A stretch of 64,000 nt of DNA from an uncultured Bacilli bacterium (GTDB taxonomy: Bacteria > Bacillota_I > Bacilli_A > RF39 > UBA660). Positions within the stretch are counted from its first letter, which is position 1; each line of letters begins with the position of its first letter. The position numbers were made by a program, and so were the translations under genes. Below the pieces are notes generated by a model that was not told where the DNA came from, did not search any database, and was given only the letters and a program-made list of their open reading frames with translations. Positions 30,968 to 60,893 of the stretch are shown here, in pieces. The stretch lies in NCBI GenBank assembly GCA_910588025.1, contig CAJUQG010000003.1:8114-72113 (forward strand), written 5' to 3'.

Positions 30968-31042
30968 AGTAAACACCTCTATTATTAAGTTTATTTTATC
31001 ATTTTCTTTGATTAATTACTATCTATTTTCTTCTATTTTACA

Positions 31043-34312: not shown

Positions 34313-34335
34313 TTTAAATCCTCCAAACAATATTT

Positions 34336-41806: not shown

Positions 41807-41881
41807 AATATACACTCCTATATCATATTCACCCTATTGTTGTCATTATAACATATTTATTTTTATTATTCTATTTATTTT

Positions 41882-44800
41882 TTAATTTACTGAGTCTATT
41901 TTCATTTGCATGTATCTTTGGAGTTTTACGCGGTCTGGTCCTGTCACTTCTTTATCATTTGTTACATCTGCTGCTATCATTTCTATTTCTTCTAATTCTA
42001 CTTTCATTTGCATGTATCTTTGAAGTCTTACTCGATCTGGTCCTGTTATGTATCCATCTCCTGTTAAGTCTCCTTTTACTACTATGATTAATTCATCATA
42101 ACAAACATCTTCTACAATTAGTTTTATTTTCATGAATGTTGATGCAATTATAGTTTCTTTATCTACTTCATTTCCTTCTTTATCATAGACATATAATGTA
42201 GTAGTTTCATTTTCAAAATTATTTAGATAGTCTTTTAGTAAAATACCTGGTTCTGATCCATATGTATATTCTAGTTTACTTCCATCTTCTTTTTCTTTTC
42301 TTTCTATTTGATAGACACTACTTGTTATTTTCTTTCTGATTACTTTAACTTCAATACTTGCTTTGATATTTTCATCATAATTACTTATTACATGAATGGT
42401 AGTTGTTCCATAACCAACACCTGTGATATTACCAAATTCATCAACACTTGCAATTGTTTCATCATCACTCATCCATTTTACTTCTGTAAATGAAGTATTG
42501 ATTGGATTTAGGGTATAAGTCATTTGTTTTAACTCACCAACATCTAGTAAGATTCTTGTTTCACTTGGAGTGATACTTTCTAAATCAAAGTTATTATCAA
42601 TTGTAATATTTAAAGTATATTCTTTTGAAGTAGTGCCATCTTCACTTGTCACTTTGATGATAAATTTATTTTCTCCACCACTTATTTCTACGGACGCATT
42701 GATATCTTGTGGTGTTGGCAAAATATCACTTGCAGTTACTGTCATGGTATTTGGAATCATCCAATTATAGGTGAAGTTTTCAGAGGCAAAACTATTTTCT
42801 AATTTACCTTGTTTTACTTCTAAGTTATCTAATAGAGCATTACTTCCCTTTTCTCTTGTTACCAGTATTTTATAAGTTTGTTTGGTGAATCCATCTTTCG
42901 CTGTTACAGTGATGACAAATTCATTGGTATTAGTCGTTGATAATTTTAAACTTTCGCTTAATTTAATCGTTGCAGATTCATCTTGTGGTGTTGCAATGAT
43001 TTCACTTGGTAAGAGAAATTTTTTACTATTTGGTACCGTTAGGTGATATTCGAAAATATCAGCATCAAAGTCTTCTATAAATGGATACCCTGTTACTTCT
43101 AGGAAAGATAATTTTGCATTGTCTTCTCTATTTTTATTTACAGTAATTGTAATCGTTCTAGTATCGCCATTTTCTGCTTCAATTACAATTTCTCTTGTAC
43201 TGGTACCGTCTGGTACTATTTCAGCTTCTACTCCTGTTACTTTCGCAAATTCTTGTTCTGTAATAACATCAAAAGATAACACAGAAGCAGAACTATCTAA
43301 ATTGATAGTATAAGAAGTTTCTTCATAAGAGAAAGATGGTTCTAACTCTCCAATGCTTGGAATTAAGCTAATTAAATGATTGTTATCACTAGATTCTCTG
43401 GTAATATGAATCGTAATATTTTTTGTTTCTCCAGCTTCACTGGTTACAGTTAGAACAAAGTCATTTAATCCAGCATGAAGATCTTTTTCTCCATCCCCAG
43501 TAACGGTGGTTGGGTCAGTGACCTCTGCATCAATCGTGACATTCGTTGTTCCAATTGGAACATTTACATTGTATTCTAAGGTATCAGGATTGAAGGTTGG
43601 ATTTAATTCATAAGTGGTCATACCACTTCGAACTACTAAATTATCTAAAGATAATATATCACTAGGTGCACGATTTACGGTGACATAATATTTTCTTATG
43701 ACTCCAGTAGTAGAAGTGACTGTAATTACTATTTTGTTTTCTCCTACATTCAGTTCATATTCTCCAAGTCCTGTAACGATGGCACTGGCATCACTAGACT
43801 CTCCAAAGATTTCTATGTTACGAACATTATTTAAAACATCAATTGAATACTCTAGTGTTTTCTTGTCAAAGTCAGGAGTTACATCTCCTTCTGAGGTATA
43901 TAAGTAATCTAAGAAGGTTGTAGCATATTTTTGTTTTGTAACATTTAAGGTATAGATTTCTTTTGTTTGATTATCGGAAGCAGTAACCTCAATAGTGACA
44001 ATATTATCACCTACTACTAAATTTTCATTTCCTGTCACTTTGTAAGTTGCATTTGCATCTTTTGGAATTACAGTTAAATCTAGAGTATCGGTTTCATAAT
44101 TCACTAATAAATCATAGTGATTAATATAAGAGTTAAATTCAAAAGGATAATTTTTTACTTTTAAGTCTTCTAGTAAAGCACTCGAAATACTTTTTCTAGT
44201 TACATTTAGGGTAATGGTATTTGTTGTACCATCTTGGGCTGTAACAATAATGAAAACAGTATTATTTCCTACTTCTAAATGATTGTTTTTGATTTCATAA
44301 GTAGAAGTATCACTTTCTAAAATCACAGTTATATCTAACTCTTCTTCTTCGTTTTCTACCACTACATCATAAGTACTTACATGAGTATTGAATTCTGGGG
44401 TCATGGTACCATTATGAACGATTAAATCTGATAAATTATTCATATTACTTTCTTCTTTGGTTAGTAAAATGGTATAAGCTTTTTTAGTTCCAATTTCACT
44501 AGTAACCTCAACAATTAACTGATTTAATCCAACATTTATTGTTTTCGTACCAGTTCCTGTTATTACTGCGGTATCGCTTTCTGCAGTAGCTTCAATCATC
44601 ACACTATTTACATCATTTGGAACTGTTAGGGTATATAACGTTACGCCTTTATTAAATTCTGGAGTAAGTGTGTATCCTAGTACTTCTAAAGATGCTAAGT
44701 TGTTATTTTTATTTGGATTTTTCGTAACATGAATGGTATAAATTTTTTTCGAAATTCCATCTGGTGCTGTTACTTCAATTATTACTTCATAATCTTTATT

Positions 44801-47800
44801 TTCTGTAAATTGATTACCGATTATCTGGTAGTTCGCATCTTTTTCCATTGGAAGAATGGATTCAAAATCTAATTCTTTTTTGGTCGTTGTCGTTGTGTAA
44901 GTATAAGTATCTGTATCAAAGTTTGGACTTAACATATCATCTTTTAGTGATAAACTTTTTAATCTAGCATCATCACTTGGAGCACGTGTTATCACAATTT
45001 GATAGTCTCTTATTTTTCCTTCGGTACTTAATACACGAATTAAAATAGTATTTTTGCCAACTTCTAAGTGATATTCTCCGTTTCCACTTACGATGGCTTC
45101 GGTATCTTCACTTGTTGCAGTAACATTCATTGTAGTTGTTTTATATGGAACGGATACTTCATAATATTGCAGTTCTTTTTTAAATTCAGGATCTAATGAG
45201 CCATTATCTAGTATTAAGCTAGCTAGGTAATCACTACCACTCACACTTTCTTGACGAGTTACTATTACAGTATAATCTTTGGTTTTTTGTGATTCACTCG
45301 TAACGCGAATGGTAACGGTGTTTTCTCCTACTTCAAAAGAATCGTTATTGATGATTTCAAAAGTAGCATTTTCATCTTCTGTTTCAATGTGGAAAGAGCC
45401 TTTTAATATTTCATAAGGAACTGAAACGGTATAATCTGTGATAGATGGTGAGAATTCTGGTGAAATTTCTCCTTCTTCTAATAATAAATATTTTAAATTT
45501 GCATTGTCCGATTTTTGCTTTTCAACTGTCAAAGTATAAGTAAGTGAGGTAGTATTATCTTCTGCTACTGTCGTAATAATAATATCAGTTGTAGAGTCCG
45601 TTAATTCGTATTCTCCATTTCCCATTACTTTTGTGGTTTTCATTTCTGGAGTAGCCATCACGGAAATCTTATTGGTTGTACTTGGTACTGTTAAAGTGTA
45701 AGTAAATTCTTGATGGTTGGTATTTGGTACCCAAACGCCTTCTGTGGTAGTTACTAAACTTAAGTAAGCATTATCCGATGGCTTTCGAATCACATTTAAT
45801 TCATATAATTTAATATCTCCTGTTTCTGAGATAACTGATAAAGAAATATTATTATTGCCAACTGCTAAAGCATATTTTCCATTCCCATTTAGTTTGGATA
45901 ATGGATTACTTTTTACACCTGTTACCGTAATGGATGAAATTTCATAAGGAAGTTCTACGGTATAAGATGTTTTTTCACGGTCGAATTCTGGATTTAAAGT
46001 ACCCTCTGATAATATAATATTTTCTAAGTAATTATCGTTATTAGCTGGGCGATTTATCACAACGTTATAGACTTTACTACTACCATCTTCGGCAATTGTC
46101 ATAATTCTTTTTAAATTTGGTCCCACTTTTAATTTATTATTGTCTAATAATTTATAAGTTGTAGTACTTACTTCGGTAGTTGCTAAGATGGTAATTTCAT
46201 TAATCCCTTCTTCTACATCTACTGAATACATTAGGGTATCTTTATCAAATTCTGGATCTAAAGAATAAGTTGTATCTCCATTTATTATAGAAATACTCTC
46301 TAAGTTGGTATTGTTATTTTTCTCTCTGGTAATTTCTAAGTAATAAGTTTCCGTTGTTCCTGTTTCGCTTGTTGTAATAATCTGAACATAGTTTACACCA
46401 ACAGATAATGTTTTTGTTCCTGTTCCCGTAATCTTAGTTGTATTTACCTCTGCAGCAGCTAAAATATCTACTGAATCAATATTATTTGGAACGGTTACTT
46501 GATAGGTTCCAGTATTAATATTTTGAAATTCTGGCATTAATTCATAAGTAATCGCATCTTTTTTTACTTGTAAGTTACTTAAATAAACGTTTTCATTTTT
46601 TTCACGATATACTTTTAGCGTATAAATTCCTGTTTCTCCATTTGATGATGTAACTGTAATGGTTACTTCATTTAATCCAACTTCAAAGTCTTTATTACCT
46701 GAAACGAAATAGGTTGCGTCTTCATCTTCTGTTTCAACATTCATTTGTTTAATTTTTGTATATTCATTTGGCACTGAGAAATAGTATTCGGTAATACTTG
46801 GATTAAAGTTTATTTCTCTTTCGGGATCAATAATCTCTAATTTTTTTAAATCAGTATTTCCAGCCATACTTCTCGTTACTTTATAATGATATTCTGTTGT
46901 TTTTGTTTTATCTTCGCTAGTTACGGTGATAACAATATCATTTTCTCCAGGATCTAGATTTACTTTTCCGTTTCCTGTCACCGTTTGATAAGGGTGCCCT
47001 TTGGTTACGGTAAACCATATTTGTTTAATATTTGAAGGAACTGTTACTTCATAAGTTAACGTGTCTTTGTCAAACGTTAAAGGATTTAAGACACAAAAAC
47101 TTGGATTTTTTGAACATAAGGAATCAACTAAACCATTTACTTCAATATTAATTGGAAAGGCATTATTACTTGCAGGTCTTGTGACATGAATGGTTATCGT
47201 TCTAATTGTGCCAGATTCTGCCATCACTTTAATTGGAAAGTCGGTAGTACCAGCTGGAACTTCAAAGGTTCCAAGACCATCGATTTTAGCAAAGTTATCT
47301 TCTGCTTTGGCAAGAAAGGTAATGCTTGTTTCTAGTTCATCTAACGTTACTGAGTATTCTAAACCTTCTAAATCAAAGGTTGGAGTGTAATTTTTAATAT
47401 TGGTTTCATTTGTGATTTCATTGGTTGCTGTAATATTTAGAGATGATAAAAAATTGTTTTCGCTTGGGAAACGAAGTGTTGAAATTCTGGCATGACCAGA
47501 CCCTTTTTTGGCATAGTTACGGGTAGGACTACTACTTACATTATTGGTTGAAATGGTTTTTGTTTTTATATCATTTGATGTAGCACATCCATAGCAATAA
47601 GTAGATTTTGTCACTGTGTCATATGATATTAGTTTGTCAGAACCGATGTAGGAAGAACCTCCTCCACCTGCTCCATGACCACGGTTTCCGCCACCTCCAC
47701 CAAAGTAGCCAGCACCTCCACCAGGTCCTCCATAAGTCATGTTACAGAAATTTCCTCCCTGACCAAAGTATCCACGTCCACAATTTTTATTGTTTCCAGT

Positions 47801-50002
47801 TGGACAATAACCACCTACGGTAAGATTTGCACCTGTTCCGTTGTAACCATTATATCCACGCGTATAGGTGTCATATCCATTGTTACCAAGGTATCCTCCA
47901 CCGTGTCCGTTTAAGTTTGTGGTAGTAGATCCGCCGCCACCACCTCCAGAGGCAACAATCACAATGGCATCTCTATCACTTGATAGATTAGAAAGTAAAC
48001 TTGGAATGGTAGAAATATGAGTAGCTCCTCCGCCACCATATCCCCACTGACTAGAATGTCCTGGAGTTCCTCCTCCATTATATCCACCATTTACAGTGTC
48101 TCCAGTACCTCCTACAGTGATATATAATTTTGTACCTTCTTTTAAATAAACAACACCAGTTGAATATGCACCATATCCACCGTTTCCGCCACCTTGTGAA
48201 CCCCAAGCTTCTAAACGGTAATATCCGTTTGCAGGGGCTGTGAATGTTTCAATATTTCCAGTATATGGATAATCATAGTTTAATACTAAATCAGAACTTT
48301 GTTTTTCTAAAATTATTTCATAAACCGTTGTTTTAGAATTTGGTTCTGTAACAGTAATTTTACCTGTTGAAGTTGCTTTGATATAACCAAATCCTTCTAA
48401 TTTAATGGTTGCTTCTTCATCAAAAGCAATGGCATTTACATTAACACTCATGGTGTTAGCCATTATTTTTGCTGTATAAGTTAAAGTCTCTGGATTAAAA
48501 ACGGGGTCTAATTCAAAGTTATTTATAGATAAGGATTTTAGTTTTGAACTATGTTCTCTATTTACAATCATTTCATAAACGGTTGTAGAACTTCCATCTT
48601 CTGCAACTACAGTAATATCAAATTTATTTTTGCCAGTATGTAAGTTGAAATTGCTTGGAAGGTAAACTTCTTGACTAAATCTTCCTTTTACTATTTCTAA
48701 ATCTAGAACTTCTTGGTCATAAGGAACATTGATTTCATATTTGGTTTTTTGTGGGGTGAAGTTTTCTAACCCTACTTGATCGATTAAGATGTCATCTAAA
48801 TATGGATAGCTTGATGGTGATCTTGTGGTATGAATTGTGTAGGTAAACACAGTCCCTGCTTCACTTGTTGAAGTAATATAAATATCATTGGTTCCTTTTA
48901 AGATGCCAATGGTTCCGGTTCCTTTGATGGTACTTTCTTGAAACATTGGAGTTGCGGTAACATCGACAAAAGAGCTTTCTGAATCAAAGGAAATACTATA
49001 GTTATAAATGTCTGGATCAAAGTTTGGAACTAAACCACTTTTGGAAAAATTCAAACTTTCTAATCGACCATCGTCATTCGCTACTAAAGAAATTCTAGCA
49101 TGACCATGACCCATTTTAGGGGTGTTTTCAAGTGGTGTTTCACTAGCACTTGAAACCGAGATTGTTTTTGTGTTTGCTACATTTGAAGTCGTACAGTCGA
49201 CACAGTACATAGCTTTTGTAAATTCTTTATAAGAAATCAAACTGGAAGAACCAATATAGGAAGAACCTCCTCCAGCACCACCGTGACTTCGGTTGGAACC
49301 TCCGCCACCAAACCAGCCGCCGCCACCGCCGTGACCGCCGATTTTGTCATTATAATAGCAGTAATCTCCACCACGACCGAATGATCCTACTCCACAACCA
49401 GATGCTCCTTTAATCGAATACCCTCCAGCTGTTTGAGTTGCTCCAGAACCAGAATATCCATTGTATCCTTGGGTTTGAGGGTATGTGTCATATCCATTTT
49501 TTCCTTGGATTCCTCCACCTTGACTACCATAAGGTTGAGCAGTATTTCCACCACCTGCCGCAACAATTAAAACAGAAGCTTTGTTAGATACTAGGCTTGA
49601 TAATACCCCTGACATTTTAGCAATATGGGTAGCTCCTCCACCACCATAACCAGCTTGTCCTCCGACATTTCCGCCAGCACCTCCACCGTTATAACCTCCT
49701 GCAAAACGATTTCTTGGATTTTCTCCTACATTGATATATATGGTTTGATCTTTATCTAAATAAATTACACCAGTTGCATAAGCTCCAAATCCTCCACTAC
49801 TTCCTCCTTGTGCTCCCCAGGTATCTATTTTGTAATATCCTGAAACTGGAGCGGTGAAAGTTTGTTCTCCACCAGTGTATGCAAAGTTTTTTACTTTTTC
49901 AATTTCAATACTCGCATTTGGAGTTATCATAAAAACGCAAAAAAGAATTAATGCTGTAATTAATTCAAAACAAAATAATAAACTGTTATTCTTTTTTTTC
50001 AT
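41882..50002 (-). CDS. giant (~2706 aa) secreted protein: 2 ALK/LTK-type glycine-rich domains, ~20 cadherin-like repeats, Big_2, C-terminal dockerin-like pair
   Basis: Signal peptide after MKKKNN. Two ~280-aa Gly-rich domains (YTGGEQTFTAPVSGYYKIDTWGAQGG...GGGGATHIAKMSGVLSSL...IVAAGGGN; second copy GGGGATHISTIPSLLSNL...IVASGGGGGG) resembling the human ALK glycine-rich region (GGGATYVF, WNDNTSLL). C-terminal Big_2 plus GDLTGDGYITGPDRVRLQRYMQMK...ADVTNDKEVTGPDRVKLQRYMQMK dockerin-like repeats. Confidence 0.8.
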   Translation of the reverse strand: MKKKNNSLLFCFELITALILFCVFMITPNASIEIEKVKNFAYTGGEQTFTAPVSGYYKIDTWGAQGGSSGGFGAYATGVIYLDKDQTIYINVGENPRNRFAGGYNGGGAGGNVGGQAGYGGGGATHIAKMSGVLSSLVSNKASVLIVAAGGGNTAQPYGSQGGGIQGKNGYDTYPQTQGYNGYSGSGATQTAGGYSIKGASGCGVGSFGRGGDYCYYNDKIGGHGGGGGWFGGGGSNRSHGGAGGGSSYIGSSSLISYKEFTKAMYCVDCTTSNVANTKTISVSSASETPLENTPKMGHGHARISLVANDDGRLESLNFSKSGLVPNFDPDIYNYSISFDSESSFVDVTATPMFQESTIKGTGTIGILKGTNDIYITSTSEAGTVFTYTIHTTRSPSSYPYLDDILIDQVGLENFTPQKTKYEINVPYDQEVLDLEIVKGRFSQEVYLPSNFNLHTGKNKFDITVVAEDGSSTTVYEMIVNREHSSKLKSLSINNFELDPVFNPETLTYTAKIMANTMSVNVNAIAFDEEATIKLEGFGYIKATSTGKITVTEPNSKTTVYEIILEKQSSDLVLNYDYPYTGNIETFTAPANGYYRLEAWGSQGGGNGGYGAYSTGVVYLKEGTKLYITVGGTGDTVNGGYNGGGTPGHSSQWGYGGGGATHISTIPSLLSNLSSDRDAIVIVASGGGGGGSTTTNLNGHGGGYLGNNGYDTYTRGYNGYNGTGANLTVGGYCPTGNNKNCGRGYFGQGGNFCNMTYGGPGGGAGYFGGGGGNRGHGAGGGGSSYIGSDKLISYDTVTKSTYCYGCATSNDIKTKTISTNNVSSSPTRNYAKKGSGHARISTLRFPSENNFLSSLNITATNEITNETNIKNYTPTFDLEGLEYSVTLDELETSITFLAKAEDNFAKIDGLGTFEVPAGTTDFPIKVMAESGTIRTITIHVTRPASNNAFPINIEVNGLVDSLCSKNPSFCVLNPLTFDKDTLTYEVTVPSNIKQIWFTVTKGHPYQTVTGNGKVNLDPGENDIVITVTSEDKTKTTEYHYKVTRSMAGNTDLKKLEIIDPEREINFNPSITEYYFSVPNEYTKIKQMNVETEDEDATYFVSGNKDFEVGLNEVTITVTSSNGETGIYTLKVYREKNENVYLSNLQVKKDAITYELMPEFQNINTGTYQVTVPNNIDSVDILAAAEVNTTKITGTGTKTLSVGVNYVQIITTSETGTTETYYLEITREKNNNTNLESISIINGDTTYSLDPEFDKDTLMYSVDVEEGINEITILATTEVSTTTYKLLDNNKLKVGPNLKRIMTIAEDGSSKVYNVVINRPANNDNYLENIILSEGTLNPEFDREKTSYTVELPYEISSITVTGVKSNPLSKLNGNGKYALAVGNNNISLSVISETGDIKLYELNVIRKPSDNAYLSLVTTTEGVWVPNTNHQEFTYTLTVPSTTNKISVMATPEMKTTKVMGNGEYELTDSTTDIIITTVAEDNTTSLTYTLTVEKQKSDNANLKYLLLEEGEISPEFSPSITDYTVSVPYEILKGSFHIETEDENATFEIINNDSFEVGENTVTIRVTSESQKTKDYTVIVTRQESVSGSDYLASLILDNGSLDPEFKKELQYYEVSVPYKTTTMNVTATSEDTEAIVSGNGEYHLEVGKNTILIRVLSTEGKIRDYQIVITRAPSDDARLKSLSLKDDMLSPNFDTDTYTYTTTTTKKELDFESILPMEKDANYQIIGNQFTENKDYEVIIEVTAPDGISKKIYTIHVTKNPNKNNNLASLEVLGYTLTPEFNKGVTLYTLTVPNDVNSVMIEATAESDTAVITGTGTKTINVGLNQLIVEVTSEIGTKKAYTILLTKEESNMNNLSDLIVHNGTMTPEFNTHVSTYDVVVENEEEELDITVILESDTSTYEIKNNHLEVGNNTVFIIVTAQDGTTNTITLNVTRKSISSALLEDLKVKNYPFEFNSYINHYDLLVNYETDTLDLTVIPKDANATYKVTGNENLVVGDNIVTIEVTASDNQTKEIYTLNVTKQKYATTFLDYLYTSEGDVTPDFDKKTLEYSIDVLNNVRNIEIFGESSDASAIVTGLGEYELNVGENKIVITVTSTTGVIRKYYVTVNRAPSDILSLDNLVVRSGMTTYELNPTFNPDTLEYNVNVPIGTTNVTIDAEVTDPTTVTGDGEKDLHAGLNDFVLTVTSEAGETKNITIHITRESSDNNHLISLIPSIGELEPSFSYEETSYTINLDSSASVLSFDVITEQEFAKVTGVEAEIVPDGTSTREIVIEAENGDTRTITITVNKNREDNAKLSFLEVTGYPFIEDFDADIFEYHLTVPNSKKFLLPSEIIATPQDESATIKLSESLKLSTTNTNEFVITVTAKDGFTKQTYKILVTREKGSNALLDNLEVKQGKLENSFASENFTYNWMIPNTMTVTASDILPTPQDINASVEISGGENKFIIKVTSEDGTTSKEYTLNITIDNNFDLESITPSETRILLDVGELKQMTYTLNPINTSFTEVKWMSDDETIASVDEFGNITGVGYGTTTIHVISNYDENIKASIEVKVIRKKITSSVYQIERKEKEDGSKLEYTYGSEPGILLKDYLNNFENETTTLYVYDKEGNEVDKETIIASTFMKIKLIVEDVCYDELIIVVKGDLTGDGYITGPDRVRLQRYMQMKVELEEIEMIAADVTNDKEVTGPDRVKLQRYMQMKIDSVN

Positions 50003-50023
50003 AACAATCACTACTATCTCTAC

Positions 50024-50061
50024 TATATAAAAGTATAACACCTTTTGTCGTATTTTGTCAT
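50024..50061 (-). promoter_or_regulatory. sigma-A-type promoter (ATGACA, 17 nt spacer, TGtTATACT) of the 41882..50002 gene; copy conserved upstream of the paralogue
   Basis: RC of 50056..50061 is ATGACA; RC of 50032..50038 is TTATACT with upstream TG; 17-nt spacer. The same ~50-bp element recurs at 59441..59475. Places the TSS upstream of ATG 50002 but inside the ORF-track GTG extension. Confidence 0.5.
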
Positions 50062-50077
50062 TTAAAATATCATTAAA

Positions 50078-50109
50078 ACGAAAAGAAAAAAAGCAAGTTA
50101 TTTCCTTGC
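50078..50109 (-). terminator. Rho-independent terminator after the 50110..59394 gene
   Basis: Minus strand agcaaggaaataacttgct hairpin followed by TTTTTTT immediately 3' of the stop. Confidence 0.5.
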
Positions 50110-53100
50110 TTAATTTACTGAGTCTATTTTCATTTGCATGTATCTTTGGAGTTTTACGCGGTCTGGTCCTGTCACTTCTTTATCATTTGTTACATCTGCT
50201 GCTATCATTTCTATTTCTTCTAATTCTACTTTCATTTGCATGTATCTTTGAAGTCTTACTCGATCTGGTCCTGTTATGTATCCATCTCCTGTTAAGTCTC
50301 CTTTTACTACTATGATTAATTCATCATAACAAACATCTTCTACAATTAGTTTTATTTTCATGAATGTTGATGCAATTATAGTTTCTTTATCTACTTCATT
50401 TCCTTCTTTATCATAGACATATAATGTAGTAGTTTCATTTTCAAAATTATTTAGATAGTCTTTTAGTAAAATACCTGGTTCTGATCCATATGTATATTCT
50501 AGTTTACTTCCATCTTCTTTTTCTTTTCTTTCTATTTGATAGACACTACTCGTTATTTTCTTTCTAATTACTTTTACTTCAATACTTGCTTTGATATTTT
50601 CATCGTAATTACTTATTACATGAATAGTTGTAGTTCCATAACCAACACCTGTGATATTACCAAATTCATCAACGCTAGCGATTGTTTCATCATCACTTGT
50701 CCATTTTACTTCTGTAAAACTTGTTATTTCTGGAGTAAAAGTATATGTGATTTGTTTTAACTCACCAACATCTAGTAAAATGCTTGTTTCACTTGGTGTA
50801 ATACTTTCTAAATCAAATTTTGCTCGTTTTACAATAATTTTATATTCTTGGGTTGTATAGCCATCTCTTGCAATAACTTCAATAATATATTCAGTACTTG
50901 CACCTGCATAAAGATTTAAATCACCCATCAAATTTACTGTCGCATTTGGATCCATCGGAATGGCTGTTATTTCATTTTGATAAAGGATATCTTTGCTATG
51001 TGGTACTTCAATAGTATAAGTAAACGTATTTGAATCAAAGGTAATTGGATAATCAATAATTGCTAATTCTTTTAGTCTTACTTCACTTGCAGTTTCTTTA
51101 TTAATATTGATTTTATAAACTCTTACACTTCCATCTTCTGCAGTTACAGTTATTTCTCTAACACTTAAGCCTTCTGGAACAATTTTATTTTCTAATCCTT
51201 TTACAGAGGCTAAATTACTTTCTAACGTAGCATTAAAACTTAAATCAGATATTTCATAAGATAGATCTAAGTTGTATTCTAATAATTCTTTATTAAATTC
51301 TGGAGATAATACCCCAGTACTTGGAATTAAACTAGAAAGATAATTGTTACTTGATACTTCTTTTGTGATATTTAAAATGTATGTATTTATAGTACCATCT
51401 TCCGCTTTTACTTCGATTTCAAAGCGATTTAATCCTGTAACTAGTTCTTTCGTTCCAGTGTTAGTTACTGTAGCAAATTCACTTTCTGCTTCTGCTTTAA
51501 TTTGAATAAAGTTTAAATCACTAGGAACTGTTAGTGAGTATTCATTTGTTTCTTTTTGAAATTCTGGATTTAGTGGTATATTTTCTAGAATGTGCATTAC
51601 TTTTAAGTTTTTTAAATAGTTATTATTTGCTGGAGTTCTTATCACGTTTACTTTATAAGTTCTAGTAATACCTATTGCTGATTTTACTTTAATAGATATT
51701 ATATTTGAACCAATATTTAATTCATGTACTCCAACACCACTTATAATTTTAGAGCTTGCATCTTGAGTGGTAGCATTTATTGTGATGTTTTGTGTTTCTC
51801 TTGGTACTTCAATCGTGTAATCCATTACAGTTGGATTAAAGATAGGATCAAGATTTCCAATAGATGGAATTAAACTACTTAAATAATTATTCGTTGACAT
51901 TTCCTTGTTTACATAAATTATGTATTCTAAAGTAGTTGTGGAATCACTTGCTGTTACTTTAATATGAATTTCATTCATTCCAATTTCTAATGAATCTTGG
52001 CCAGTTATTTCAACACTAGCATTTTTATCTTCTGCAATAGCAGTTATGTTTAATTGTTCTGTATCATTTGGAACTGTAATAAAATATTCTAATATTTCTT
52101 TATTAAATTCAGTATCTAGTGCAAAGTTTGTAACACTTAATTCTTTTAAGAATGCACTTATTATACTTTCACGAATTATTTTTATATTGTAGCTTCTTAC
52201 TAAACCTGATTCACTTGTTACAAGGATGGTAATATTATTTTCTCCTTCGTTTAAATTATAATTTCCAAACCCTGTAATGGTTGCATTTACATCTTCTGCT
52301 TTTCCATTTAAAGAAATCGATTCAATTTCATGTGTAACATTTATGGTATAATCTGTAGTTTCTTTTTGAAATATTGGATTTAGTGTACCTTCATTTGTAT
52401 TTAAGCTTGCTAAATAATTGTTATCACTTGCTTCTTTGGTAATTAAAACGGTATACACTTTTTTATCTCCGGTTTCACTTGTTACTACTATTTCAAAATA
52501 ATTTTCTCCTGTTTCTATCTTTTTTAAACCAGTACCCGTAATAGTTGCATTAGCATCTTCTGACGTTGCACTAATTACGACACTATTTACATCATTATTT
52601 ACTTCGGTAGCATAGAAAGTTACTCCTTTATGGAATGTAGGAGTTAGATTATATTCAACTACTTCTAAAGATGCTAGATTATTATTTTTACTGCCTGTTT
52701 TTTCTACAATAATCTTATATTCTTTTGTCGTTTCTCCATCTGGTGCTGTTACTTTTATGGTAACTGTATTTTCTCCTGTTTGAAAATTTTGATTACCAAT
52801 GATTTCATAAGTAGCATCTGTCTCAGTTGGGTTTATCATGGTAAATTCTAAATTCGTTTTACTTGTTGTTAAATGATACTCTGTTACGTCTTTAGAAAAA
52901 CTTGGGGATAACACATGATTTTTAACAACTAAATTTGTTAAAGATGCATCACTACTTTTCTTTCTTGTAATTACGATTTGATAATCCTTTTGAATTTGAG
53001 AGTTTCCAACTACAAAGATTGGAATCGAGTTTTTTCCTACTTTTAATGGGTAGGTTCCTAGTCCTTTTATGGTAGCAGACTCATCAAAAGCACTAGCTGT

Positions 53101-56100
53101 AATGGTAATATCTTCTATATCATGTTCTACTGTCAGTTCATAATTTAGAATAGTTGGATTAAAGGTAGGTGTTAGTTCTCCTCTATTGGTATCAAGAGAA
53201 CTAAGAGTTAAATCTTCATTCGTATTCTCTTGTTTTATGATATGAGTCGTATAAATTTTAACATTACCATTTTGAGCAGTAACCACGATATCAATATCTT
53301 TTGTATCATTTGGATTTAAACTACTTACATCAATGGTAAATTTGTAAGTGTCAATATTATTACTATCAGTAACATCTACAAAAGCATAAGGACTTTCTGG
53401 AATTGCTGTCATGTGTAATATATTGGTATTAAACGGAACTTTTACTTCATAATAGATGGTTGTTTCATTGAAAATCGGAGATAATCCCCCTTCTTCAATA
53501 TATAAGAAATCTAAGTCATCGTTATCTGATTTATCTCTTACTACTTTAATTACATAGTCTTTTGCTGAACCATCTTCAGCTGTAACTCGTAGTGTTATTT
53601 TATTTTCTTCCCCAGGAATTAAGTTATAGGTTCCATTTCCAATGACGTTTGAGGTGTTCGATTTTGGTGTCCCTGTAATATCAATACTACTAATTTCATA
53701 TTGAACGTTTATTAAGTAATCATAATCTTTGGTAGGGTCTATATTTTCTATTACAACACTACCTCGATTGTTGGTAATAGATTCTAATTCAGTATTATCA
53801 TCAAGTCTTTTATTTACTTTGATGGTATAAACTCTATCTACTCCATCTTCACTAGTAACAGTTAGGGTAATTATATTTTCACCTTTTACTAAGGCATACG
53901 TTCCATTTCCCTTAATGTTTGAAGCATTATCTTCTTTGATTCCTTTTAAAGTAATTTCATTTACAGATCCATCTACATCAATGGTATATGATAGATTTTC
54001 TTTATTAAATTCTTCATTTAGTGTGCCACCTGTTACTTCAATATTTTGAAGATAATTATTCGTACTTGATTCTTTTAAGACAACAATTTGATAAACCTGG
54101 TAAGTTTTATCTTCTGCAATACTAGTTATAACAATAATATTTGATTTTTCTGTTAGATTATTATTTCCTCTTATTGTATAAGTAGTGGTATTTTCTTCTG
54201 GTGTTACCTTAACATTTAATTTATCTACATTTTTAGGAATTGTCACAGTATAATTTTTGATGTCTTTGGAAAATTCAGGACTTATTTCATAGCCTTCAAT
54301 TTCAATATTTAATAAAGAACTATTATTATTACGAGATTTCATAATCACTATTTCATAAATGTTAGTATCTCCAGATTCACTTGTAACTGTAATTGGGAAG
54401 CTATTTTTACCACTCACTAGTTCAAAAACACCTGTTCCTGTTACTGATCCTGCTTCTGAAGCGGCATTAATCGTTATTTTTTTGGTAGTTGCATCTACAA
54501 CAGCAGTATAGTCATTTAAAAGTTTATTAAATGTTGGCGTAAGTTCTACTTTTTCTTGATTTTCTTTTATAACTTCTAAATTACTTAAGAAGGTATTAGT
54601 ACTTTGCTCTTTGTAAGTATATAAAATATAAGTTTTTTGATTTTTATTTGGAGCTGTGACTAAAATACGAATTTCATTTAATCCAGTCATTAAATTTTCA
54701 TTTCCAGAAATAGTAACTGTTGCATCTGGATTTTCGGGAATTGCTTCTAATTCTATTTGGGCAAATTCTGCAGGAATCGTAATATAGTACTCATAAGTAG
54801 ATGGGTTAAATGTTATTTCTGTTTTTTCATTTTGAGGATTGGTAACATTTAAAATGGCAAGATTATTGTTACCTGAATCGTCTTTTCTTATTTTATAAGT
54901 ATATGTAGTAGTATGAAGTCCATCTTCACTTGTTATATCAATTTCAATGATATTGATACCACTATGAATTTCAAAAGTATCACTTGTTTGTTCTATACGA
55001 TTTTCTTCTTCATTTTCTGGTTCATTACGGTAATATTTTATTGTTTGATAATCACTTTTTAAGGTAGGTGTTAAAGATATTTTTTCTGTCAGAAATGGAA
55101 GTAAGATTTCATAACTAGTAATGTCACTATCAAATGTATAGTTACAGTAAGAAGGACTTAAACCACATAAATAAGCTACAGGATTTTTTAAGACGATATC
55201 TTTCGCTTTACTATCATCAGATGGTTCGCGATTTATTTTTAAGGTGTAGGTTTTATTTGCTCCATCTTTTGTAGAAACAACAATTTTATGTTCATTTAAT
55301 CCTGGGTGTAATGTAATATCACCATTTCCTAAAATGCTTGCTTCTTGGGATTTTGGAATTGCTAATATGTCGATTGAATTGTATTCTTTTGGTAAATCGA
55401 TTTCATAAGTATAAGTCCATGGTTCAAAAGGAATGGTTACATTTCCATGATCTATTATAATGTTATCTAAGAAGGTATCTCCGACAATACCTGGAGTGGC
55501 TGTAATTTTAGCATATCCATTTCCACGGTTTCCATCCATTAAATTGGTTCCATCGTAGTTTGGCATTTTTTGATTACCAGAAATCATTTCTGTATCATTT
55601 AAATAATATTTTTGATCTACTGAATAACCGTTTGGAACGTTGTTTTTAGAATTAGATGTCCAGATAAAGCCTGAACCTCCTCCAGCACCATGCCATCCAG
55701 AGCCACGAGAATTATATCCGCCATACCAGCCCCCTCCTGCTCCTGGTCCGCCATATCTTGCACTGATGTAACTAATGGTAGAAGCACTTGCATTAAATCC
55801 TCCACCAAATGACCAACCTGCGGTTTGGGTTCCGGGTGCACCATAAGAAGTTGAATAAGAGTATCCAGATAATCCTCCTCCATCTCCTCCACGTTCACCG
55901 TCCATTCCGCCGCCACCACCACCGCCAGCGACAATAAGACGTGATAAAAGAGATGATTGGTCATTCCAAGGACCACTTACAAGACGAATATCGGTAGACC
56001 CTCCACCACTTGCAGCAGGATCATTACTAGTGTTGATGGCTTTGTAACCGGACCCGCCACCATTAAAGCTTGGGGCTGTTGTACATATTTTTCCACCACA

Positions 56101-59100
56101 CCAAGTACCTTCTTTTCCAACATAAATATAGAGAGTATCTCCCTTATTTAAATAAACAGAACCTTTGGCGTATCCTCCAAGTCCACCTATACCTAGTTCA
56201 CTATTTTGATGATGTCCTCCACCACTTGCACCCCATACTTCTAACGTATAAAGTGCTGGAGATGGTGCAATAAATGTTTGGTAATCACCTGTATATGTAA
56301 ATCCTTCGTTTACAGGGTCCAATATAGGCTCTATTCGTTTTAGATTTAAAGTATAAACCGTACTACTAACTCCATCTAGATCAACAGTTATAGTAATTTG
56401 TTTTTCTTTTTCTGAAACATATCGATTTTCTACAATTGTTACTTTGGCATCTTCAAAAAATGGTGTTGCAATCATTGGAACTTCTCTTGTAAAGTTTAAA
56501 ATTTCTAGAGTGTAATCTTTTTTAATAGGTGAAAAAGCACTTGTTAATACACCACCATCAATTTCTAAACTTTTTAATAGACTAGCTCTTTTTCTTTTAA
56601 AGGTAAAAGTATATGGTTGATTTTGTAAATCCCCTTCACTTGAAACTACAATATTAATTACTAATTCATTTTCTGTAAATTCATAAATTGTATTTTCTGG
56701 TATTTTTTGTCCTGGATATAATTTTAATAGTTCTAAATTAATTTTTGTTATTTCTGTTGGTAATTCCATTTCGTAATCAAACTTAGTTGGGTCAAAATTC
56801 ACATAAAGTAGACCATTTACTTTAAAGCCTTTTAACTGAGCACTAGCACTTGCTGGTCTTGTTACATGTATTGTATAAATGGAAATTTCGCCATTTAAAT
56901 TTGTAAATGTAATGGTAAAGTCTTGGTCTCCTGCTGGAACATTAAATGTACCTAGACCTGTTATTAATGCTTCTTGTTTTTTGGTTGTAGCATCAAAAGT
57001 AATCGTAGTATCTCCAACATTTAAAGAAAGATCATAATCAAATGTACCTTCATGAAATTCTGGAGTTAACACGCCTTTATCTACTGTTATTTCTAATAGT
57101 TCATCTAAATCATCTGTGGAATAATAAGAAATTTTAGCGTATCCTGCGGCATTATTTCCTAGCATGACACTACTGCCATCATAAGTTGGCATATATTGAT
57201 TTCCTGCTAAGGTTTCGGTCTCTTTTAAATAATATTTGTTTGTTGCTATGTATCCGTCTGGAACATTTTTAGAAGAAGATTCATTTAAAACAAATCCTGA
57301 TCCTCCTCCAGCACTATGGAATCCTCTTCCCAAAGAGTTTTTTCCACCATACCAGCCGCCACCGCCACCAGAGCCACCATATTGGGAACTGATGTATCCG
57401 ATGGTACTTGCATTAGCGTTAAAGCCTCCACCAAAAGACCAACCTGAGTTTTGCGTTCCGGGTGCACCATAAGAGGTAGAATAAGAGTATCCAGATAAGC
57501 CTCCGCCATCTCCTCCACGTTCGCCATCCATACCAGATCCACCACCACCGCCTGCAACGATGATACGTGATAGAAGTGAGGTTTCATTGTCCCAAGGACC
57601 AGGAACAAGCCGAATATCGGTAGCCCCTCCACCACTGGCAACAGGGTCTCTAGTTGAATTCATAGTTTTGTAACCGGTTCCTCCACCATTAAAGCTTGGA
57701 GATGATATACAAATAGAATTGCCACACCAAGAACCTTCTGCTCCGACATAAATATACAATTTATCTCCAGCATTTAAATATAGCTTTCCTTTGGAATATC
57801 CTCCTAGTCCAGCTATTCCTAATTCTGAATTTTGGTGAGATCCACCACTTCTTGCTCCCCATACTTCTAAGGTATAGTAAGTGGAGTATGGAGCAACAAA
57901 TTCTTGATAATCTCCAGTATAATTAAATGTTGTTTCTAGTGGTTTACTATTTACCGTTTGTTCAAATTCTCTATTAATATTAAACTTATAAGTTGTATTC
58001 TCACAATTTGGTTTACTTACATTAATTGTGACTATATTTTTTCCTACACTTAGATCATTTGAGGATATGGTGTAAGTTGTTTCTTCATCAGTTTCAATCA
58101 GTGGATTAAATTTAGTTGTAGTATGATTTACTGTAATATCGTATTCATAAACATTACTTTCAAACGAAGTAAAATTTTCAAATGTTAGATTATTTAATTT
58201 AGCTTTAGCAATTACTGGATAAATATTGTAGATAAAGATATTCCCTTCTAAATCCATTAATATTACTTGATGAATTTTATCTTTTTCTAAAGTTGTTTCT
58301 CCTACATTGTGCGCCCACATAAATTTTGTTTCATCATAGGTTATAGTAGTTTTATAAGGAGATGCTGGTAAAACTGTTTCATAATTTAGAGTGTTATTTT
58401 CAAAAAAAGGAGTTAGTTCTAAATCAGTTAAAGATATCGGTGGTTTTTCTCCATCTAAAGGAGAAGTTTTTTCTAATAAGGTTATTTTGGCATATCCATC
58501 GGCTTTATTTCCAATCATAGTACTTTTTCCATCATGAGTTGGCATGGATGCATTTCCGGCTATTGTCTTGGCATCCGTTAAAAAATACTGCTCACTAACA
58601 TGATAACCTTTTGGGACATTTAAAACAGACTCTGGAGTCCATATAAAACCAGAACCTCCACCAGATCCTTCCCATTTGCTAGGACCAGCTGAGTAATATC
58701 CGCCATACCAGCCACCGCCTCCACCATTTCCACCATAAGTAGAATTAATGTAAGAAAGGGTATTTACATTGGCGCTAAATCCTTCTCCAAATTTCCAGCC
58801 AGTGGTTTGGGTTCCACCATAACCAGATTCCGCGTTAACAAGAATTCCTTCTAAACCGCCACCGTGGCCACCAGGTTCGCCATTATCTACACCGCCGCCA
58901 CCGCCACCGCCTGCAACGATGATACGCGATAAGAGAGAAGATGAGTCATTCCACTCTCCTTTTGTAAAACGAATGTCTGTAGCTCCTCCACCACTCGCAA
59001 CAGGATTCCAAGTATCACTAGCAGCAGTTCGTTTCCAGCCAGAGCCGCCACCATTGAACCCTCCAGGAACGGTACAATATCCACCTTGGCAAAACGTACC

Positions 59101-59394
59101 TTTTCCACCGACATAGACATATAATTTCTCACTTGTTTTTAATTGGATTACTCCTGTCGAGTAACCACCTTTACCACTTGGTCCTAGATTGCTTTGTTGA
59201 TGGTCTCCTCCACCTTCTGCTCCCCAAACTTCTAATTTATATTTTCCTTGAACAGGAGCAATAAATTCTTGTGAGTCACCTGTATATGAAAAAACAAATT
59301 CTTCATTAATTTCTACCGCTTTAATTTCTAGTGGAAAAAAAAGAAAGAAAAAAAGAAAAATAAAAAAACTTTTTTGATATTTATTGATACTCAT
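50110..59394 (-). CDS. giant (~3094 aa) secreted protein: 3 ALK/LTK-type glycine-rich domains, >20 cadherin-like repeats, Big_2, C-terminal dockerin-like pair (paralogue of 41882..50002)
   Basis: Signal peptide (MSINKYQKSFFIFLFFFLFFPLEIKA). Three Gly-rich domains starting with YTGD(S/Y)QEF-AP...LEVWGA-GGG and containing SGGGATDIR(F/L)...W(N/D)(D/N)-SSLLSR(I/L)IVAGGGGG. C-terminal ~205 aa identical to the 41882 paralogue. ATG 59394 (59409 is non-ATG). Confidence 0.8.
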   Translation of the reverse strand: MSINKYQKSFFIFLFFFLFFPLEIKAVEINEEFVFSYTGDSQEFIAPVQGKYKLEVWGAEGGGDHQQSNLGPSGKGGYSTGVIQLKTSEKLYVYVGGKGTFCQGGYCTVPGGFNGGGSGWKRTAASDTWNPVASGGGATDIRFTKGEWNDSSSLLSRIIVAGGGGGGGVDNGEPGGHGGGLEGILVNAESGYGGTQTTGWKFGEGFSANVNTLSYINSTYGGNGGGGGWYGGYYSAGPSKWEGSGGGSGFIWTPESVLNVPKGYHVSEQYFLTDAKTIAGNASMPTHDGKSTMIGNKADGYAKITLLEKTSPLDGEKPPISLTDLELTPFFENNTLNYETVLPASPYKTTITYDETKFMWAHNVGETTLEKDKIHQVILMDLEGNIFIYNIYPVIAKAKLNNLTFENFTSFESNVYEYDITVNHTTTKFNPLIETDEETTYTISSNDLSVGKNIVTINVSKPNCENTTYKFNINREFEQTVNSKPLETTFNYTGDYQEFVAPYSTYYTLEVWGARSGGSHQNSELGIAGLGGYSKGKLYLNAGDKLYIYVGAEGSWCGNSICISSPSFNGGGTGYKTMNSTRDPVASGGGATDIRLVPGPWDNETSLLSRIIVAGGGGGSGMDGERGGDGGGLSGYSYSTSYGAPGTQNSGWSFGGGFNANASTIGYISSQYGGSGGGGGWYGGKNSLGRGFHSAGGGSGFVLNESSSKNVPDGYIATNKYYLKETETLAGNQYMPTYDGSSVMLGNNAAGYAKISYYSTDDLDELLEITVDKGVLTPEFHEGTFDYDLSLNVGDTTITFDATTKKQEALITGLGTFNVPAGDQDFTITFTNLNGEISIYTIHVTRPASASAQLKGFKVNGLLYVNFDPTKFDYEMELPTEITKINLELLKLYPGQKIPENTIYEFTENELVINIVVSSEGDLQNQPYTFTFKRKRASLLKSLEIDGGVLTSAFSPIKKDYTLEILNFTREVPMIATPFFEDAKVTIVENRYVSEKEKQITITVDLDGVSSTVYTLNLKRIEPILDPVNEGFTYTGDYQTFIAPSPALYTLEVWGASGGGHHQNSELGIGGLGGYAKGSVYLNKGDTLYIYVGKEGTWCGGKICTTAPSFNGGGSGYKAINTSNDPAASGGGSTDIRLVSGPWNDQSSLLSRLIVAGGGGGGGMDGERGGDGGGLSGYSYSTSYGAPGTQTAGWSFGGGFNASASTISYISARYGGPGAGGGWYGGYNSRGSGWHGAGGGSGFIWTSNSKNNVPNGYSVDQKYYLNDTEMISGNQKMPNYDGTNLMDGNRGNGYAKITATPGIVGDTFLDNIIIDHGNVTIPFEPWTYTYEIDLPKEYNSIDILAIPKSQEASILGNGDITLHPGLNEHKIVVSTKDGANKTYTLKINREPSDDSKAKDIVLKNPVAYLCGLSPSYCNYTFDSDITSYEILLPFLTEKISLTPTLKSDYQTIKYYRNEPENEEENRIEQTSDTFEIHSGINIIEIDITSEDGLHTTTYTYKIRKDDSGNNNLAILNVTNPQNEKTEITFNPSTYEYYITIPAEFAQIELEAIPENPDATVTISGNENLMTGLNEIRILVTAPNKNQKTYILYTYKEQSTNTFLSNLEVIKENQEKVELTPTFNKLLNDYTAVVDATTKKITINAASEAGSVTGTGVFELVSGKNSFPITVTSESGDTNIYEIVIMKSRNNNSSLLNIEIEGYEISPEFSKDIKNYTVTIPKNVDKLNVKVTPEENTTTYTIRGNNNLTEKSNIIVITSIAEDKTYQVYQIVVLKESSTNNYLQNIEVTGGTLNEEFNKENLSYTIDVDGSVNEITLKGIKEDNASNIKGNGTYALVKGENIITLTVTSEDGVDRVYTIKVNKRLDDNTELESITNNRGSVVIENIDPTKDYDYLINVQYEISSIDITGTPKSNTSNVIGNGTYNLIPGEENKITLRVTAEDGSAKDYVIKVVRDKSDNDDLDFLYIEEGGLSPIFNETTIYYEVKVPFNTNILHMTAIPESPYAFVDVTDSNNIDTYKFTIDVSSLNPNDTKDIDIVVTAQNGNVKIYTTHIIKQENTNEDLTLSSLDTNRGELTPTFNPTILNYELTVEHDIEDITITASAFDESATIKGLGTYPLKVGKNSIPIFVVGNSQIQKDYQIVITRKKSSDASLTNLVVKNHVLSPSFSKDVTEYHLTTSKTNLEFTMINPTETDATYEIIGNQNFQTGENTVTIKVTAPDGETTKEYKIIVEKTGSKNNNLASLEVVEYNLTPTFHKGVTFYATEVNNDVNSVVISATSEDANATITGTGLKKIETGENYFEIVVTSETGDKKVYTVLITKEASDNNYLASLNTNEGTLNPIFQKETTDYTINVTHEIESISLNGKAEDVNATITGFGNYNLNEGENNITILVTSESGLVRSYNIKIIRESIISAFLKELSVTNFALDTEFNKEILEYFITVPNDTEQLNITAIAEDKNASVEITGQDSLEIGMNEIHIKVTASDSTTTLEYIIYVNKEMSTNNYLSSLIPSIGNLDPIFNPTVMDYTIEVPRETQNITINATTQDASSKIISGVGVHELNIGSNIISIKVKSAIGITRTYKVNVIRTPANNNYLKNLKVMHILENIPLNPEFQKETNEYSLTVPSDLNFIQIKAEAESEFATVTNTGTKELVTGLNRFEIEVKAEDGTINTYILNITKEVSSNNYLSSLIPSTGVLSPEFNKELLEYNLDLSYEISDLSFNATLESNLASVKGLENKIVPEGLSVREITVTAEDGSVRVYKININKETASEVRLKELAIIDYPITFDSNTFTYTIEVPHSKDILYQNEITAIPMDPNATVNLMGDLNLYAGASTEYIIEVIARDGYTTQEYKIIVKRAKFDLESITPSETSILLDVGELKQITYTFTPEITSFTEVKWTSDDETIASVDEFGNITGVGYGTTTIHVISNYDENIKASIEVKVIRKKITSSVYQIERKEKEDGSKLEYTYGSEPGILLKDYLNNFENETTTLYVYDKEGNEVDKETIIASTFMKIKLIVEDVCYDELIIVVKGDLTGDGYITGPDRVRLQRYMQMKVELEEIEMIAADVTNDKEVTGPDRVKLQRYMQMKIDSVN

Positions 59395-59440: not shown

Positions 59441-59475
59441 AGAGTATAACACTTTTTGTCGACTTTTGTCATTTT
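59441..59475 (-). promoter_or_regulatory. sigma-A-type promoter of the 50110..59394 gene (paralogous copy)
   Basis: RC of 59467..59472 is ATGACA; RC of 59443..59449 is TTATACT; 17-nt spacer; flanking sequence about 85% identical to 50020..50065. Confidence 0.5.
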
Positions 59476-59576: not shown

Positions 59577-60035
59577 TTATTTTTCTTCAAAACCACATTC
59601 TAAAACGATTTCCATACGATAGTCTTTTTTACCAAAAGGCTCTTGTGGATAAATGATTACTTTACTATTTTGTTTATGGCATTCTTCCTTCGTTTTTGAG
59701 TTTACAAAGGCGTCAAGTTTTTCTTTATTTTCTTCTGTTTTATATCTTGATAAACCATCTAAATTAATTTTAATTCCTAAATCAGTATAGTTTTTTAAAA
59801 ATTTTGCTCTCTCTTCATCATTTTTACCAATTTGTTCATAGTACAAATCTTCATAGAAAGATACGCCCATTTCTTTCATATATTTTTTTAAGGTAGCTTC
59901 TTCATTGTTATTTTGTAATAATAAAACAATTAATAAAATGATGGCGATTATTATAATGAAACCTACACCAAATAAAAGACTCTTTTTCTTATCTTTCTTT
60001 AATATTTCTATCCATGATTTTACTTTTTCTTTCAT
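59577..60035 (-). CDS. hypothetical membrane-anchored protein
   Basis: 152 aa, N-terminal TM (LLFGVGFIIIIAIILLIVLLL) then a soluble domain with no recognisable motifs. Confidence 0.55.
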   Translation of the reverse strand: MKEKVKSWIEILKKDKKKSLLFGVGFIIIIAIILLIVLLLQNNNEEATLKKYMKEMGVSFYEDLYYEQIGKNDEERAKFLKNYTDLGIKINLDGLSRYKTEENKEKLDAFVNSKTKEECHKQNSKVIIYPQEPFGKKDYRMEIVLECGFEEK

Positions 60036-60086: not shown

Positions 60087-60794
60087 TCATCCCATTTTTC
60101 CAGCATGAATAATGACTCTTTTGGTTTCATCATAATAGCATGTGGAAAGGGTTAATGTTTGTTTTAAATTTTCTCTTTTTTGAAATAGCGAATGATTTGA
60201 TTCAAAATAGGCTTGGTGCTTGTCTAGTGGGGTTTCATCTGATTCGTCGGTAATATAAGCAGCATAGACAAGATATTCCATTGTAGATGCTTCGGTATGA
60301 ATTATGATTTTTATATCATTACCCAGTTTTCCTTCTTGAATTTTAATTAATTCTCCAAATATAGTATCTTTATAAGTATTGTGCCCAAATAAAATGGTAT
60401 TATTGTCACTAAAATCAGAGCTGTTTTGGTAATTCATGAATACAGAACCATAAATATTGTATTTTCTTAATAGATCATGATTTAAGTAAAACGAATTGTC
60501 TTGTCCTTTGACGATAGCATAATTAATATTGGTCTTGGGAATCTCAATCCAACCAACGACATCAGGATTCATGGCTTTTAATTTTGAAAAATCGATTTGT
60601 TGTTTTGTTTCTCCTTCAATTACATCCGTTTGAATTACTTGATTTATAATCATTTCTTGAACTTTGCTAGCTTCTTTTTCATAATATATTTTTTGACCAA
60701 TTGGAATCATTGAGAAACCAAATAAAAGAACTAGAACAAAGATACTACCATTTATGATCAATTTTTTATATTTTGTTTTTAATTTTCGTTTCAT
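60087..60794 (-). CDS. srtB: class B sortase
   Basis: Signal anchor, DVVGWIEIPKTNINYAIVKG, GSVFMNYQN, NNTILFGHN (His), TLTLSTCYYDETKRVIIHAGK (TLxTC Cys and Arg); closely parallels S. aureus SrtB motifs. ATG at 60794 (60803 is GTG). Confidence 0.85.
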   Translation of the reverse strand: MKRKLKTKYKKLIINGSIFVLVLLFGFSMIPIGQKIYYEKEASKVQEMIINQVIQTDVIEGETKQQIDFSKLKAMNPDVVGWIEIPKTNINYAIVKGQDNSFYLNHDLLRKYNIYGSVFMNYQNSSDFSDNNTILFGHNTYKDTIFGELIKIQEGKLGNDIKIIIHTEASTMEYLVYAAYITDESDETPLDKHQAYFESNHSLFQKRENLKQTLTLSTCYYDETKRVIIHAGKMG

Positions 60795-60893
60795 AGGACT
60801 CACTCATTTTTATTATTATAGCATTTTTTCTAATTATTTTAATATGAGTATTTTTGGGTCTTCTTTTTTTATTCAAGTTTTATCATTCTTTTG

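Follow-up and report, generated by a model that had tools for sequence, protein, structure and literature searches.

Do relatives of the glycine-rich domain (GRD) of the human receptor tyrosine kinases ALK and LTK exist in bacteria, and what might they do there? In humans, the domain tends to be treated as an oddity of these two cancer-relevant receptors. The question is raised by a stretch of 64,000 nucleotides from an uncultured Bacilli bacterium (contig CAJUQG010000003.1; hereafter the window, G+C ~31%), where the open reading frame (ORF) listing shows three very long consecutive ORFs on the minus strand at 34.5-59.4 kb. Two of them, gene A (41882..50002, minus strand, 2706 amino acids (aa)) and gene B (50110..59394, minus strand, 3094 aa), encode secreted giants with five copies of such a domain and are the subject of this work; the third, gene C, is described with the neighbouring genes. 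The starts of A and B are the ATGs picked in the original prediction, which had been made from the sequence of the window alone. The exact sequences of both proteins are recorded in several public metagenome-assembled genomes (MAGs), which are gut-derived and annotate them as 'hypothetical protein'. The remaining genes of the window are typical of a chromosome (trigger factor, Lon, IleRS, PriA, Fmt, RsgA, PASTA kinase, RlmN), which identifies the source as chromosomal DNA of an uncultured gut Bacilli bacterium of low GC content.

Five glycine-rich domains in two giant proteins

The layout of both genes was established from the ORFs, their translations, Pfam and a domain map. In gene B, a signal peptide (MSINKYQKSFFIFLFFFLFFPLEIKA; 59317..59394, minus strand, read by eye from the translation) is followed by GRD1, one Cadherin-like repeat, GRD2, three Cadherin-like repeats, GRD3, 17 Cadherin-like repeats, a Big_2 domain and a dockerin. 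Gene A has the order signal peptide, GRD1, three Cadherin-like repeats, GRD2, 18 Cadherin-like repeats, Big_2 and dockerin, and its N-terminus, likewise read by eye, is signal-peptide-like. The Pfam content of the two proteins is confined to these four kinds of domain (GRD, Cadherin-like, Big_2 and dockerin).

The boundaries of the GRDs were set with a profile built on the five copies, in which each copy scores an independent E-value between 1e-89 and 1e-133. All lie on the minus strand: B1 at aa 31-311 (58462..59304), B2 at aa 486-762 (57109..57939) and B3 at aa 1028-1304 (55483..56313) in gene B, and A1 at aa 36-311 (49070..49897) and A2 at aa 574-847 (47462..48283) in gene A. The profile and the Pfam family PF12810 agree on the count of two copies in A and three in B, each of about 280 aa, as originally proposed. 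The domains are 274-281 aa long and contain 22-25% glycine, with 7-8 runs of at least three glycines per domain. The sequence blocks quoted in the original prediction were found in the translations: YTG..F.AP is invariant in all five copies, and LEVWGA.GG, GGGATDIR and W(N/D)D.SSLLSRIIVAGGGGG are present in all three B copies, the corresponding blocks of the A copies being TWGAQGG and GGGGATHI. Two subtypes can be distinguished, since identity is 55-57% among the B copies and 54% between the A copies, which form a subtype with four cysteines, whereas A and B copies share only ~36%. Such a five-domain pattern is far beyond chance or compositional bias.

All domains had been placed at the distal N-terminal tips of the two proteins. 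This is true of the first copy of each, which directly follows the signal peptide, but not of copies 2 and 3, which are found 480-1300 aa into the protein among the Cadherin-like repeats, with one to three repeats separating the GRDs.

Do the domains vary between strains, as the tips of some adhesins do? Across 10-11 strain variants (P0137-P0165), 3-6% of GRD positions are variable, compared with 4% in the stalk of B and 11% in that of A; the A stalk is the most variable part of all (10.9%), while the whole of B varies at only 3-6% of positions. Hypervariability of the GRDs is refuted by these values, and their low variability indicates constraint.

Homology to the ALK/LTK domain

The key question is whether these modules are homologous to the glycine-rich region of human ALK and LTK, as the original prediction claimed. 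Three lines of evidence were obtained. First, a hidden Markov model search with PF12810 (ALK_LTK_GRD, cutoff 24.5 bits) identified two stretches in A (E 1.2e-56, 192.9 bits) and three in B (E 3e-130, 433.9 bits), both proteins scoring far above the cutoff and the matches spanning profile positions 7-243 of 243.

Second, a bacterial profile of 73 domains (B1-B3 and 70 metagenomic homologues) was run against 177,635 PDB sequences and matched human ALK (E 2.6e-6), LTK (E 1.8e-3) and C. elegans SCD-2, and no other PDB sequence. A profile of this depth was needed because smaller queries were too weak: a single-sequence phmmer search of B1 against the PDB sequences did not find ALK, and the five-sequence profile reached only E 0.25, to SCD-2.

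Third, AlphaFold2 (AF2) returned confident, compact models of B1 (pLDDT 93.4, pTM 0.92) and A2 (pLDDT 81.6, pTM 0.84), and all 21 Foldseek matches of the models with E<=1e-3 were ALK/LTK ectodomains; the superposition covers only ~60% of the domain (Foldseek TM 0.4-0.46). In the ALK fold, a TNF-like beta-sandwich is joined to a lattice of polyglycine-II helices. The predicted models match this fold, and DSSP assigns little helix or strand along their glycine-rich stretches.

The agreement of these three independent routes excludes a low-complexity artefact and disorder as far as prediction allows. The modules in A and B are thus genuinely homologous to the glycine-rich domain of ALK and LTK. 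One detail of the proposed correspondence did not hold. The bacterial WNDSSSLL had been equated with ALK WNDNTSLLWAG, but HMMER pairs bacterial GGGATDIR...SLLSRIIVAGGGG with another ALK segment, upstream of WNDNTSLLWAG; the ALK motif lies one element further downstream, past that strand, and the two are off register. Judged from this alignment, their likeness is a local coincidence.

How far does the relationship to the receptors extend? The glycine-rich domain is shared with human ALK (7LRZ/7N00), LTK (7NX0) and SCD-2 (7LIR), but A and B lack a transmembrane kinase, an EGF-like module and any MAM, LDLa or heparin-binding region, and their domain occurs in two to three copies on what appears to be a dockerin-bearing bacterial fibril. 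Pfam detected neither a tyrosine kinase nor a membrane-proximal EGF-like module after the GRDs. The aspartate and arginine of GGGATDIR, near-invariant in bacteria, are not kept in ALK either (GGGATYVF). Lacking a kinase, an EGF-like module and a receptor topology, A and B fall outside the ALK/LTK receptor family and are unrelated to ALKAL signalling, the domain alone being shared; their GRDs are not expected to bind ALKAL, nor would an ALKAL-like gene be expected in bacteria.

Distribution among bacteria and phages

Bacterial homologues of the domain had been described as rare. An exhaustive HMMER search of 1.84 billion cluster representatives (50% identity) with the five-copy profile yielded 11,899 proteins at E<=1e-3, 7,333 at E<=1e-10 and 1,719 at E<=1e-30. 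Many of them are giants 2,000-7,600 aa long that carry as many as 10 copies. When B1 was used in a word-indexed search, at least 2,905 proteins among 8,000 candidates were significant, and many of these combine the domain with a type-IV-pilin N-terminus (N_methyl), LysM, fn3, Big_2 or Cadherin-like domains. At least 275 relatives were confirmed in a scan of one genome per species; among the matches listed (80 of 275) were Bacilli, Clostridia, Bacteroidota (Segatella, Pontibacter, Flavobacterium), Paenibacillus, Peribacillus, Patescibacteria, Proteobacteria, Myxococcota and Ignavibacteriales. At least 264 further relatives were present in IMG/VR viral contigs. The 11,899 clusters, together with the relatives from the species scan and the viral contigs, contradict the supposed rarity.

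Like A and B, other bacterial PF12810 proteins often carry several copies of the domain on large secreted proteins; they differ in their anchors (a pilin N-terminus, LysM, fn3 or none), and some have 7-10 GRDs. The layout of A and B itself recurs in at least three diverged representatives (P0183, P0184 and P0228), which combine a dockerin with 3-4 GRDs and 11-16 Cadherin-like repeats. No model for the domain was found in NCBIfam, and in the searchable literature PF12810 is mentioned for a fungus, without a function being given. The earlier description of the domain as functionally uncharacterised stands, as no relative with a tested function was found among bacterial and phage proteins. A and B therefore belong to a large, functionally uncharacterised family that is already defined by Pfam.

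Stalk, dockerin and gene ends

Most of the length between the GRDs and the C-terminus is taken up by Cadherin-like beta-sandwich repeats. The stalk of B consists of 17 consecutive repeats (aa 1317-2853; 50836..55446, minus strand; PF12733 E 7e-127) and that of A of 18 (aa 871-2464; 42611..47392, minus strand). An iterative repeat map gives 21 repeats in each protein, the other four of B lying between its GRDs, where Pfam alone finds 15-19 in each. In B, the stalk is followed by a Big_2 domain identified with Pfam (aa 2864-2930; 50605..50805, minus strand).

Both proteins end in a type-I dockerin, at aa 3031-3086 of B (50137..50304, minus strand; loop repeats DLTGDGYITGPD and DVTNDKEVTGPD) and aa 2643-2698 of A (41909..42076, minus strand). 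PF00404 scores 28 bits in each against a cutoff of 22.9, and the duplicated calcium-loop segments D-x-T-x-D-x-x-x-T-G-P-D, with RVxLQRYMQMK, can be read in the sequence of both, as in a dockerin with two calcium-binding loop-helix repeats. The last 195 aa, from Big_2 to dockerin, are identical between A and B, and so are the 3' ends of the genes over 441 nt (41882-42322 and 50110-50550). Beyond this, up to ~590 nt, the genes differ only at scattered, mostly third positions. This pattern points to a recent gene conversion or duplication that would have affected the anchoring end.

Upstream of B lies a promoter-like element, ATGACA-18-TATACT with TG (59443..59472, minus strand), recognised by its consensus match and a conserved alignment, and the same element is found upstream of A (50032-50061, minus strand); the sequence common to both is AAATGACAAAA..CGACAAAA.GTGTTATACT. 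A terminator-like hairpin (50091-50111) directly follows the B stop. A and B look like separate, similarly controlled transcription units, as far as such elements can be read. The counts of promoters and terminators in the region are at chance level, and only the shared element of A and B stands out.

Proposed display on the cell wall and possible role of the domains

A cohesin-dockerin surface assembly calls for a partner, encoded in the same genome, that bears both a cohesin and a surface anchor. The protein p1079 (27737..30976, minus strand) is a candidate. Its N-terminal cohesin (about 30434-30793) is recognised by PF00963 with E 1.1e-9 (39 bits, the cutoff being 24.1), nine Big_2 domains come next, and the protein ends in a sorting tail (27740-27844) composed of NPQTG, a hydrophobic segment and KKSKMKI. 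By its domain content, p1079 is likely a wall-anchored docking platform. A sortase gene (60087..60803, minus strand; Pfam Sortase E 1.5e-17) is located two genes upstream of B, and its best match is the class B model TIGR03064 (E 2.5e-37). Signals of the NPQTN/NPKTG type are processed by class B sortases.

We propose, with a probability of about 0.6, that A and B are secreted, fibril-like surface proteins displayed on the wall through cohesin-dockerin contacts, with the GRDs acting as binding heads by analogy with phage proteins. The sortase would attach p1079 to the cell wall, and the dockerins of A, B and two neighbouring proteins, C and p295, would plug into cohesins. The Cadherin-like repeats would form a stalk of roughly 100 nm, and the GRDs near its far end would bind a surface ligand on the host, a food particle or another microbe. 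The parts of this mechanism are observed in the genes, and every interaction between them is one that we infer.

The suggested role as binding heads is an analogy, since phage tail fibres and tail tips contain the same fold. Next to ALK, the most similar solved structures are those of the tail fibre gp24 of cyanophage Pam3 (7YPX) and the tail-wing-brush protein gp33 of mycobacteriophage Bxb1 (9D93). In Pam3 gp24, the TNF-like and glycine-rich domain points outward and has been proposed to recognise the host receptor (PMC9942802); related 'brush' or polyglycine-rich domains are presumed antireceptors (PMC13243795, PMC13243192). The fold of these proteins appears to resemble that of the A and B GRDs, and their role is probably alike, but they are virion parts, the Pam3 fibre being a trimer, whereas A and B are cellular giants with a dockerin and a Cadherin-like stalk. 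The domains of A and B also match phrog_1589, phrog_5811 and phrog_7388, all listed as 'unknown function', with E-values down to 1e-45. In one viral contig (L082, 5989-7716), a phrog_1589 gene directly follows baseplate-wedge and tail-fibre genes and lies shortly before an endolysin gene; in another (L098, 5932-8664 and 8971-11460), proteins with two to three GRD copies adjoin tail-like proteins. A possible annotation for these three phrog families is ALK/LTK-type GRD tail protein.

Several points weigh against this interpretation of A and B. The case for an adhesin is an analogy with phage proteins, for which the ligands are themselves unproven, and the structures are predictions, residues 220-239 of the A2 model being of low confidence. 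The pairing of cohesin and dockerin is derived from co-location only, two dockerin sequence types are present, and the sortase scores 128 bits, below the NCBIfam class-B equivalog cutoff of 154. Finally, the GRDs vary little between strains, in contrast to some phage receptor-binding tips, whose loops are hypervariable.

Could the domains instead bind insoluble polysaccharide? They would then be the substrate-binding modules of a cellulosome-like complex, and their flat polyglycine-II faces would attach to dietary fibre, chitin or mucin glycans, not to cells. Cohesin-dockerin systems are typical of cellulosomes, and like a cellulosome-type assembly the cluster combines type-I dockerins and a sortase with a cohesin protein that bears a sorting signal; the gut origin of the MAGs also fits. 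A further point in favour is that antifreeze proteins use flat polyglycine-II lattices to bind ordered surfaces, and sfAFP is cited among polyglycine-II proteins (PMC13243192). However, this explanation is weakened because Pfam detected no carbohydrate-active enzyme among the 29 window ORFs: neither a glycoside hydrolase, nor a lyase, nor a known carbohydrate-binding module was found in these or in the dockerin proteins. The rest of the window consists of housekeeping genes, and the nearest solved non-metazoan relatives are phage tail proteins. In place of attached enzymes, the cargo would be adhesin-like fibrils of 2,400-3,100 aa. We consider binding to polysaccharide unlikely.

Self-association, in which stacking glycine faces would bundle the fibrils and coat or aggregate cells without a specific external ligand, appears about equally improbable. 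It would account for the several copies per protein, which are set among the stalk repeats and not solely at the tip, for the existence of proteins with up to 10 copies and for the low strain-level variability; moreover, an association of glycine-rich segments with polyglycine-II bundles has been suggested (PMC13243192). On the other hand, both solved phage domains are exposed on the tail fibre or tip and not in the tail shaft or baseplate core, and protein C has a comparable stalk but no GRD. The GRD of ALK itself is a ligand-binding module, which also speaks against a purely structural unit.

A mere artefact of glycine-rich composition in disordered linkers, to which the glycine content and the failed single-sequence search for ALK might point, is extremely improbable and was ruled out computationally by the profile matches to ALK/LTK and the confident models.

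Neighbouring genes

Genes C, p793, p295 and p1079 lie downstream of A and B in the same strand run. Gene C (34511..41815, minus strand) encodes a sibling of 2434 aa in which Pfam and the repeat map identify 18 Cadherin-like repeats and a dockerin, and no GRD. Its N-terminal ~230 aa have no Pfam match and occupy the place of the GRD in A and B; judging by this position, they may serve as an alternative head on a comparable stalk. The protein p793 (31949-34330, minus strand) is composed of an orphan N-terminal module, four Cadherin-like repeats, a transmembrane segment and a cytoplasmic tail of ~150 aa, and p295 (31043-31930, minus strand) of an orphan N-terminal module, Big_2 and a dockerin. 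The two orphan modules are ~120 aa long and 37% identical. They have no Pfam match and no PDB sequence match, and a single other homologue was found among 5.8 billion proteins; the module may be a very diverged cohesin.

Between the sortase gene and B, a 152-aa protein with one N-terminal membrane segment is encoded (59577-60035, minus strand). A homologue with 37% identity is located just upstream of a GRD gene in a related MAG (L008, 3918-4352), and the pairing of this protein with a GRD gene seems to be conserved.

Two further genes were recorded. The only sizeable plus-strand gene in the surface-protein cluster (26831-27697, 288 aa) has no Pfam or NCBIfam match. The minus-strand gene at 24492-26687 encodes a 731-aa protein without a Pfam family, in which 5.7 copies of a 42-nt repeat (25733-25972; 14-aa unit TEPPVEELPTEPSE) are followed by a long Cys/His-rich region.

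Meaning of the locus

What does this locus add to the understanding of the domain and of the organism? It places an ALK/LTK-type domain in a clear bacterial setting, in several copies on giant fibrils that we take to be displayed on the wall. With thousands of bacterial and phage relatives, the question is no longer one of a rare bacterial copy of a human domain. A broader and distinctly speculative view, which we would sooner doubt than accept, is that the TNF-like and polyglycine-II module is primarily a prokaryotic and phage binding head, of which the metazoan ALK/LTK region would be a late offshoot, possibly acquired from bacteria. Here, the module would be carried on stalks of ~100 nm by an enzyme-free cohesin-dockerin/sortase-B display serving attachment to the host mucosa or to other microbes. 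If true, A and B would be the first tractable bacterial model for what the TNF-like and polyglycine-II fold recognises. The GRDs, as compact and confidently modelled domains (pLDDT 93), offer material for binding and structural work. As its genes suggest, the cluster would exemplify, in an uncultured gut lineage, cohesin-dockerin display of adhesin-like cargo and not of enzymes.

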